64,000 bases of DNA, taken from NCBI RefSeq assembly GCF_001677475.2, contig NZ_CP015229.1, one strand, 5' to 3'. Shown in pieces: positions 12,380 to 12,472 of this stretch; the first letter of the stretch is position 1; each line of letters opens with the position of its first letter. Below the pieces are notes generated by a model. That model worked only from the letters and a program-made list of their open reading frames with translations. It made no database searches and was not told the origin of the DNA. This DNA is from Escherichia coli (GTDB lineage Bacteria; Pseudomonadota; Gammaproteobacteria; Enterobacterales; Enterobacteriaceae). The position numbers were made by a program, and so were the translations under genes.

Positions 12380-12405
12380 AGACCAAAGCAAATTTGAGAG
12401 ATATC

Positions 12406-12429
12406 TTCTTCTGTCTTGCCACAGAAGAA
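12406..12429 (+). other. perfect 9-bp-stem hairpin in the hrpB-mrcB spacer
   Basis: TTCTTCTGT cttgcc ACAGAAGAA, 27 nt after the hrpB stop; no adjacent U-tract. Confidence 0.4.
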
Positions 12430-12472
12430 CAGAAAATCGGGCTTTTGCGCCTGAATATTGCGGAGAAAAAGC

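Follow-up and report, generated by a model that had tools for sequence, protein, structure and literature searches.

Base pairing at the 5′ end guards E. coli mRNAs against 5′-end-dependent decay, and RNase E is stimulated when a single-stranded end carries a 5′ monophosphate. [quoted passage not shown] In papBA and glmUS, intercistronic processing by RNase E frees a stable downstream message. Cleavage within 5′ UTRs, as in the cfa leader, has been described by a "U+2 ruler," with the consensus RN|WUU and a critical U at +2 (Chao et al. 2017).

Here, we analyze the spacer between hrpB and mrcB in a 64,000-nt stretch of E. coli DNA (contig NZ_CP015229.1 of assembly GCF_001677475.2), referred to below as the window. 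The product of mrcB, PBP1B, is one of two main peptidoglycan polymerases in enteric bacteria and a β-lactam target; no post-transcriptional control of this protein appears in a 2026 review of peptidoglycan regulation. The mrcB leader resembles each of the systems above in part. Like the U+2 ruler site of the cfa leader, it carries a predicted single-stranded site of the AG|AUU type, with R at −2 and U at +2; unlike other such sites, the mrcB site is deeply conserved, keeps a constant spacing to the start codon, and directly precedes a covarying stem, and no small RNA is known to protect it as in cfa-type cases. As in the ompA 5′ UTR, a hairpin at or near the (putative) 5′ end is followed by a single-stranded segment, a second hairpin, and the ribosome-binding site. 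However, the ompA hairpin sits at the primary 5′ end, whereas the mrcB end would arise by processing of a 300- to 500-nt leader and, in Escherichia, would leave 5 nt before the core stem; it is by analogy with ompA that the mrcB hairpin may be stabilizing. As in papBA and glmUS, a cut between co-oriented genes would uncouple the downstream mRNA, but most mrcB transcripts appear to start inside hrpB, and the element persists where hrpB is not adjacent.

Taken with the evidence set out below, these likenesses lead us to regard as probable, though well short of settled, that the mrcB leader contains an RNase E processing site followed by a 5′-terminal protective stem-loop. Should the leader amount to no more than a processing site with a protective stem, it would be a clear if ordinary case of a known mechanism. 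A covarying leader hairpin beside a strong RNase E site also provides a testable handle on the maturation and stability of PBP1B mRNA.

The hrpB-mrcB spacer and its inverted repeat

The hrpB stop codon occupies positions 12377-12379 and the mrcB ATG begins at 12473, leaving a spacer of 93 nt (12380-12472) between two genes on the plus strand; an earlier note, made from the sequence of this stretch, had likewise described a 93-bp spacer co-oriented with mrcB. In a published listing, hrpB and mrcB belong to separate operons. The features considered in this study are the following.

9905 to 12379, plus strand: hrpB coding sequence, the upstream gene (open reading frame list; annotation of matching E. 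coli genomes)
12068 to 12080, plus strand: promoter inside hrpB for the long mrcB mRNA, with −10 hexamer TACACT at 12068-12073 and start at A12080 (match to the K-12 context)
12394 to 12401, plus strand: UUGAGAG|A, with the predicted RNase E cut at G12400|A12401 (GAGAGAT(T/A)TC in 79 of 81 leaders; match to the Salmonella column)
12402 to 12435, plus strand: extended hairpin 1, in which outer pairs (12402-12405 with 12432-12435) surround the core stem
12406 to 12429, plus strand: core hairpin, 9-bp stem and 6-nt loop (inverted repeat; covariation; leader folds)
12438 to 12453, plus strand: predicted hairpin 2, CGGGC / UUUUGC / GCCUG (single-sequence and alignment folds)
12462 to 12466 and 12473 to 12475, plus strand: Shine-Dalgarno sequence GGAGA and mrcB start codon (sequence; near-invariant in 81 leaders)
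12473 to 15004, plus strand: mrcB (PBP1B) coding sequence (open reading frame list; annotation of matching E. coli records; 80 orthologues)

The perfect 9-bp inverted repeat that the earlier note had placed at 12406-12429 is present at exactly those coordinates. Its arms, TTCTTCTGT (12406-12414) and ACAGAAGAA (12421-12429), are perfectly complementary over 9 bp and enclose the loop CTTGCC (12415-12420), and the leader of the window reads, in order, ...AAAUUUGAGAGAUAUC-UUCUUCUGU-cuugcc-ACAGAAGAA-CAGAAAAUCGGGCUUUUGCGCCUGAAUAUUGCGGAGAAAAAGC-AUG. Such a repeat is in itself unremarkable, because perfect 9-bp repeats with loops of 3 to 10 nt give 20 hits at 8 places in the window (compared with about 3 hits in first-order Markov shuffles). 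Folded as RNA, the hairpin segment (12401-12436) reaches −10 kcal/mol, which is a modest stem strength, with a z score of −3.2 and none of 200 shuffles as stable; the fold of the full 93-nt spacer is of ordinary stability (z = −0.8). The window alone therefore cannot rule out chance, and the case for a real hairpin comes from 81 orthologous leaders, in which it is conserved and covaries. When all 423 nt of the window's leader are folded, both the minimum free energy and centroid folds keep the core hairpin; hairpin 2 is kept as well and the cut site is unpaired. The Shine-Dalgarno and start region of mrcB is mostly unpaired by prediction (0.96 in the window). An Rfam scan of positions 12000-12900 (E ≤ 10) returned no relevant family, with two chance-level hits elsewhere (E = 6.8 and 8.9).

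A sensitive blastn search placed the 91-nt hairpin region at a single site in each of 5,424 of 5,426 complete E. coli genomes, at 95 to 99% identity. Within Escherichia, the stem arms are almost invariant, the sole change seen being an A-to-G substitution in E. albertii that keeps the pair as U-G, and it is the loop that differs (GCC in the window; GTA, GCA, GTT, or GTC elsewhere). The loop CTTGCC of the window was absent from the E. coli records inspected. In 15 records sampled over the ranking of the 5,424 matching genomes, the best identity to the 91-nt query was 98.9%, and one further record falls in the band of at least 99%; the lineage of the window may be rare among complete E. coli genomes, or it may be that of a close relative.

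Most E. coli strains, K-12 included, carry a GC-rich insertion of 41 to 105 bp (CCCTCTCCC...GGGAGAGGG) directly after the hrpB stop codon, while the window and a few other E. coli strains lack it; the insertion point corresponds to window positions 12380-12393. The insertion sits 5′ of the hairpin region and leaves the hairpin itself unaffected. Repeats of this kind (Box C-like insertions) are hairpin/G-quadruplex elements (Kaplan et al. 2016). In the K-12 locus (L001), the GC-rich insertion covers 236-340, and the sole 3′ end mapped in the K-12 spacer (164636) lies just past it.

Conservation and covariation of the mrcB leader

We aligned the 90 nt before the start codon and the 30 nt after it from 80 mrcB loci of different Enterobacteriaceae species, which together with the window comprise 81 leaders. 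Across these leaders, a single block of about 80 nt preceding the mrcB start codon is conserved, and sequences farther 5′ bear no relation to one another between genera. The edge is sharp: the block starts at TTGAGAGAT(T/A)TCTTCTT (TTGAGAGA) and runs to the ATG, with a distance from block start to ATG of 79 nt (range, 76 to 83 nt). By comparison, the distance from the hrpB stop codon to the block ranges from 1 to 430 nt and is filled by repeat-like or terminator-like hairpins that differ by lineage. In Klebsiella and Raoultella, no hrpB gene lies within 1.5 kb upstream (in K. pneumoniae, hrpB and mrcB are 16 locus tags apart), yet the block is intact, which indicates that the element belongs to mrcB rather than to hrpB. 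We take the functional unit to be the conserved leader of about 80 nt, comprising the cleavage motif, the extended hairpin, hairpin 2, and the ribosome-binding site. The earlier note was thus right about the 9-bp core but drew the element too small.

This comparison covers the Enterobacteriaceae. A word-indexed protein search for mrcB homologues outside the family returned only Enterobacteriaceae, and a search of 50% clusters gave homologues at 64% and 49% identity with other flanking genes and no recognizable block. The first 17-mer of the block turns up by chance in many metagenome contigs; of 80 hits to it there, 11 had the rest of the block, in every case before mrcB. A dispersed repeat (REP/BIME, Box C/HPGQ, or ERIC) or the remnant of a mobile element was ruled out as the source of the block, which is single-copy per genome.

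At the 80 loci, the gap between the hrpB stop codon and TTGAGAGA is an insertion hot spot. The hairpins there are Box C-like, REP-like (GCCGGATAAGGCG...), or terminator-like, depending on the genus, and all lie on the 5′ side of the block. Only 1 to 3 nt separate the block from the hrpB stop codon in Citrobacter youngae, Buttiauxella, Cedecea, and others. The presence of a leader element explains why the spacer takes so many insertions only 5′ of TTGAGAGA.

Within the block, the hairpin covaries. Columns 27-36 paired with columns 41-50 hold standard pairs in 92.4% of sequence-by-pair cells over the 81 leaders, and compensatory changes, with both sides altered, occur in 6 of 10 core pairs; columns 34 and 43 alone pass through six pair types (GC, AU, GU, UA, UG, and CG). 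The observed covariation score was reached in 0 of 500 shuffles and dropped from 0.28 to 0.07-0.13 when the partners were slid by 1 to 3 columns. The outer stem (UUCUU/AAGAA) is invariant in sequence, while the inner four or five pairs vary freely (UGU/ACA, CACC/GGUG, CUCC/GGAG, CCCC/GGGG, and others). Pairing extends beyond the core, with columns 23-36 and 41-56 paired at 90% and the pair 27-52 changing from U-A to C-G in Buttiauxella. In most genera, AUUUC pairs with GAGAA over a 2-nt bulge, for a total of about 14 pairs; in Escherichia, this outer helix is weakened by an A-A mismatch. Hairpin 2 is conserved with little covariation, its central pairs being invariant and the pair 60-73 alternating between A-U and G-U. 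Compared across orthologous spacers, as the earlier note had proposed, the stem is thus conserved with compensatory changes, the opposite of the outcome that the note named as refuting it, and at the level of sequence these comparisons confirm the hairpin as a real, conserved element of the mrcB mRNA leader.

G-U pairs far outnumber A-C combinations in the stem (131 versus 12), indicating that it pairs as RNA made from the plus strand, in the direction of mrcB. Since this asymmetry is an RNA signature, it counts against a DNA-level element, whether a promoter (TTGAGA-17-TGTAAC) or an operator palindrome for a transcription factor. Ishihama's tables do list TTGAGA-17-TGTAAC for hrpB>mrcB, and genomic SELEX reports holoenzyme peaks (sigma-H, sigma-F, and sigma-E) at K-12 164658, with the sigma-70 table giving the same spacer and no coordinate. 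However, the listed −10 hexamer is the hairpin loop, which reads TGTAAC, TGTCAC, TGTTAC, or TGCAAC in Escherichia and TGCCAC in the window, with unrelated sequences in other genera; we rejected this promoter on the grounds that its −10 hexamer is a variable loop. A second candidate, an A/T-rich −10-like hexamer that abuts GAGAGA in 77% of leaders, is unlikely to act as a promoter, as it has no −35 and the matching Salmonella 5′ end disappears once RNase E is inactivated, which a primary start would not do. Overall, we hold a DNA-level function to be very improbable. The SELEX coordinate 164658 (window, about 12401) matches that of the predicted RNase E 5′ end, probably by an accident of where the probe lies.

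Like an intrinsic terminator, the hairpin is a stem-loop after a stop codon, and in a strain lacking the GC-rich insertion it is the first stable structure past hrpB. It could accordingly be read as a transcription pause or termination element (Rho-dependent or an attenuator) or as a 3′ barrier for hrpB transcripts, but several observations make any such role highly doubtful. Unlike an intrinsic terminator, it has no U-tract, its stem is A/U and purine/pyrimidine rich (3 G-C in 9 pairs, then CAGAAAAUC), and no mapped 3′ end falls at the hairpin: K-12 Term-seq tables, which describe K-12 rather than this strain, give only 164636 in the spacer and none at 164663-164700. An RNase E cut just 5′ of the hairpin would also sever it from hrpB RNA. 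A scan for terminators and consensus promoters found nothing in the spacer. The earlier note's judgment that this is not a classical terminator, made from the lack of an adjacent U-tract, is borne out by the absence of a T-run, the few G-C pairs, and the empty scan; the Rho-dependent pause that it offered among other roles is not supported by the K-12 Term-seq data or by the Klebsiella and Raoultella loci, where the element goes with mrcB and hrpB lies elsewhere.

A further alternative is that the leader encodes a small protein, from a 30-codon upstream open reading frame with a TTG start (12394-12486) that is extended in K-12 to the 68-amino-acid D8B36_18480. The frame is open in about 55 of the 81 leaders, its TGA end overlaps mrcB codons 4 and 5, and the gene was formerly annotated, with a reported overexpression phenotype: a 2024 study (PMC10869245) described "D8B36_18480" as a "conserved 68-aa protein" between hrpB and mrcB whose overexpression reduced csgA 18-fold. 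We matched this gene by length and position (its locus tag lies between mrcB and hrpB) to the sole 68-amino-acid open reading frame of the K-12 spacer (L001 238-444, plus strand), which spans the GC-rich insertion and the mrcB leader with its hairpin. Against a protein, stop codons interrupt the frame in Salmonella, K. pneumoniae, K. oxytoca, and E. cloacae, frameshifts disrupt it in Kosakonia, Buttiauxella, Cedecea, and others, and its variation tracks base pairing rather than codons. The first 38 amino acids of the K-12 frame derive from the insertion and are missing in the window and many strains, the window retaining only a 36-codon remnant (12376-12486), and the gene has been dropped from the current RefSeq annotation. 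With stops or frameshifts in about a third of the 81 leaders, we rejected the upstream open reading frame and give a protein product almost no credence. Because the frame is not conserved and RefSeq has removed it, the phenotype of D8B36_18480 may stem from RNA; the cloned fragment corresponds to leader RNA, and the csgA effect may be exerted by that RNA. What was once annotated as a "conserved small protein" in this spacer is probably the leader RNA.

A putative RNase E site at the base of the hairpin

Transcripts of mrcB start far upstream of the gene. Kim et al. 2012 mapped the start inside hrpB in E. coli (K-12 164235; 495 nt before mrcB) and 296 nt before mrcB in K. pneumoniae, and Chao et al. 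2017 gave the Salmonella mrcB 5′ UTR as 220480-220919 (440 nt). The 51-nt context of the K-12 start is unchanged in the window at 12030-12080, which gives a 5′ UTR of about 393 nt from A12080. With starts at such distances, the hairpin sits within a long leader. The E. coli start and the start of the Salmonella 5′ UTR both lie 299 nt before the hrpB stop codon, and the internal promoter looks conserved. For 5′ ends of the E. coli leader, the Cappable-seq and SMRT-Cappable-seq supplements hold no entry, and Mendoza-Vargas 2009 lists only an antisense start inside mrcB.

TIER-seq of Salmonella SL1344 places an RNase E-dependent 5′ end at 220848, AAATTGAGAG|A|TTTCTTCTTC (also written UUGAGAG|AUUUCUUC), 72 nt before the mrcB ATG (Chao et al. 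2017). Its reads number 287 and 249 versus 9 and 2 (log2 ratio, 5.24), with the columns read according to the purpose of the table. No other RNase E-dependent 5′ end in the Salmonella hrpB-mrcB region is as strong, and none besides it falls between the hrpB stop codon and the mrcB ATG. The site is already a row in that public table; we found no paper on the mrcB leader element or on control of mrcB by small RNAs or RNase E. In our alignment, 220848 maps to column 22, corresponding to A12401 of the window, one nucleotide before the extended hairpin. Of the roles that the earlier note had proposed (an RNase or protein recognition element or a Rho-dependent pause), it is therefore the link to an RNase that gains support, from an RNase E-dependent end adjoining the hairpin in Salmonella.

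The Salmonella site conforms to the RN|WUU consensus. The motif of the window, AG|AUA, has R at −2, W at +1, and U at +2, with A at +3, where U is preferred; 65 of 81 relatives have AG|AUU. The cut segment is predicted to be unpaired whether the 93-nt spacer or the 423-nt leader (centroid) is folded. Starting from the cut A, the RNAs of Salmonella, Enterobacter, Buttiauxella, and Silvania have one free 5′ nucleotide followed by an interrupted 14-bp stem, with folding energies of −14 to −17 kcal/mol and z scores of −2.6 to −3.9. The corresponding RNA of the window has 5 free nucleotides (AUAUC) before the 9-bp core, as the outer pairs are weak.

These observations suggest the following sequence of events. 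A long mrcB transcript, either started inside hrpB (window, about 12080) or reading through from hrpB, would be cut by RNase E in the single-stranded UUGAGAG|AU (window, G12400|A12401), so that the hairpin right after the cut would become the 5′ end of the mature mrcB mRNA. The paired end would shield the new 5′ monophosphate from 5′-end-dependent attack by RNase E, and the processed message, with hairpin 2 and an open ribosome-binding site, would persist independently of hrpB and of insertions upstream. Protection by paired ends and stimulation of RNase E by a 5′ monophosphate offer a reason for a stem directly after the cut, and the sharp 5′ edge of conservation, together with insertions tolerated only upstream of it, fits a processing site that discards everything 5′ of the cut. 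For this organism, we infer both the cleavage and the protective or positioning role of the hairpin.

Several points temper this reading. Five unpaired nucleotides before a stem may be too many for full 5′-end protection, and this spacing, together with the A at +3, weakens the model in the Escherichia lineage. The abundance of the Salmonella 5′ end is compatible with a stable product but is no proof of one, as the cut could instead start decay. Finally, UUGAGAG, the inter-hairpin GAGAAUC, and the first 30 coding nucleotides are more strongly conserved than processing and protection need, which hints at a further bound factor.

Candidate trans-acting factors and RNA switching

One way to account for this excess is that the hairpin and its conserved purine-rich flanks are where a trans-acting factor docks to control mrcB translation or the access of RNase E. 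Candidates include a small RNA with Hfq, ProQ, CsrA, and the neighboring RNA-dependent NTPase HrpB, and such docking would be compatible with the processing model. Near-invariance of UUGAGAG, GAGAAUC, hairpin 2, and the first 30 coding nucleotides, which is more than a cut site and stem require, speaks for it; Chao et al. 2017 put RNase E sites in 5′ UTRs forward as candidate control points for small RNAs or proteins (cfa, RydC), and titration of a factor would fit the 18-fold drop in csgA seen when the K-12 spacer fragment D8B36_18480 is overexpressed. On the other hand, a literature search found no paper that connects a small RNA, Hfq, CsrA, or RNase E with mrcB, A-R-N repeats and GGA motifs are not kept between genera (sequences read by eye), and no partner sequence was identified. 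We therefore treat docking as possible but unlikely.

A bolder version, which we think rather improbable, makes the leader a regulated processing module: a factor that bound the invariant UUGAGAG/GAGAAUC or unwound the hairpin would set the amount of stable PBP1B mRNA, and the freed leader would act in trans. Such a factor might be a small RNA, an RNA chaperone, or HrpB, the RNA-dependent NTPase encoded next to mrcB. If this were true, the drop in curli gene expression with "D8B36_18480" would be an RNA effect of the leader fragment.

The leader could also act as an RNA switch, in which the CU-rich 5′ arm UUUCUUCUU serves as an anti-Shine-Dalgarno sequence: on capture of the 3′ arm, it would pair with GGAGAAAAAG and block translation. 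Read from the sequence, UUUCUUCUUC can pair with GGAGAAAAAG at 9 of 10 positions, and a switch would account for an outer arm of fixed sequence beside a covarying inner stem. When the 3′ arm was forced to be unpaired, the mean predicted accessibility of the Shine-Dalgarno sequence fell from 0.68 to 0.47. This effect is small and inconsistent, however, with a change from 0.96 to 0.95 in the window and none in several species. The alternative pairing falls far short of the hairpin in stability, and as neither of its partners varies, covariation cannot test it. On balance, we consider a switch improbable and retain cleavage by RNase E next to a protective stem as the preferred explanation for the leader.

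Two further features lie downstream of the leader. The first 30 nt of mrcB (12473-12502) are almost invariant between genera, at synonymous positions too, and a small GCGG/CCGC hairpin is possible there by prediction (about 12476-12490). Just past the mrcB stop codon, a perfect inverted repeat, TACCGGATGGC...GCCATCCGGTA, occupies 15020-15046; by its look it is a REP-type or terminator hairpin, and it lies between mrcB and the next large open reading frame, at 15224.
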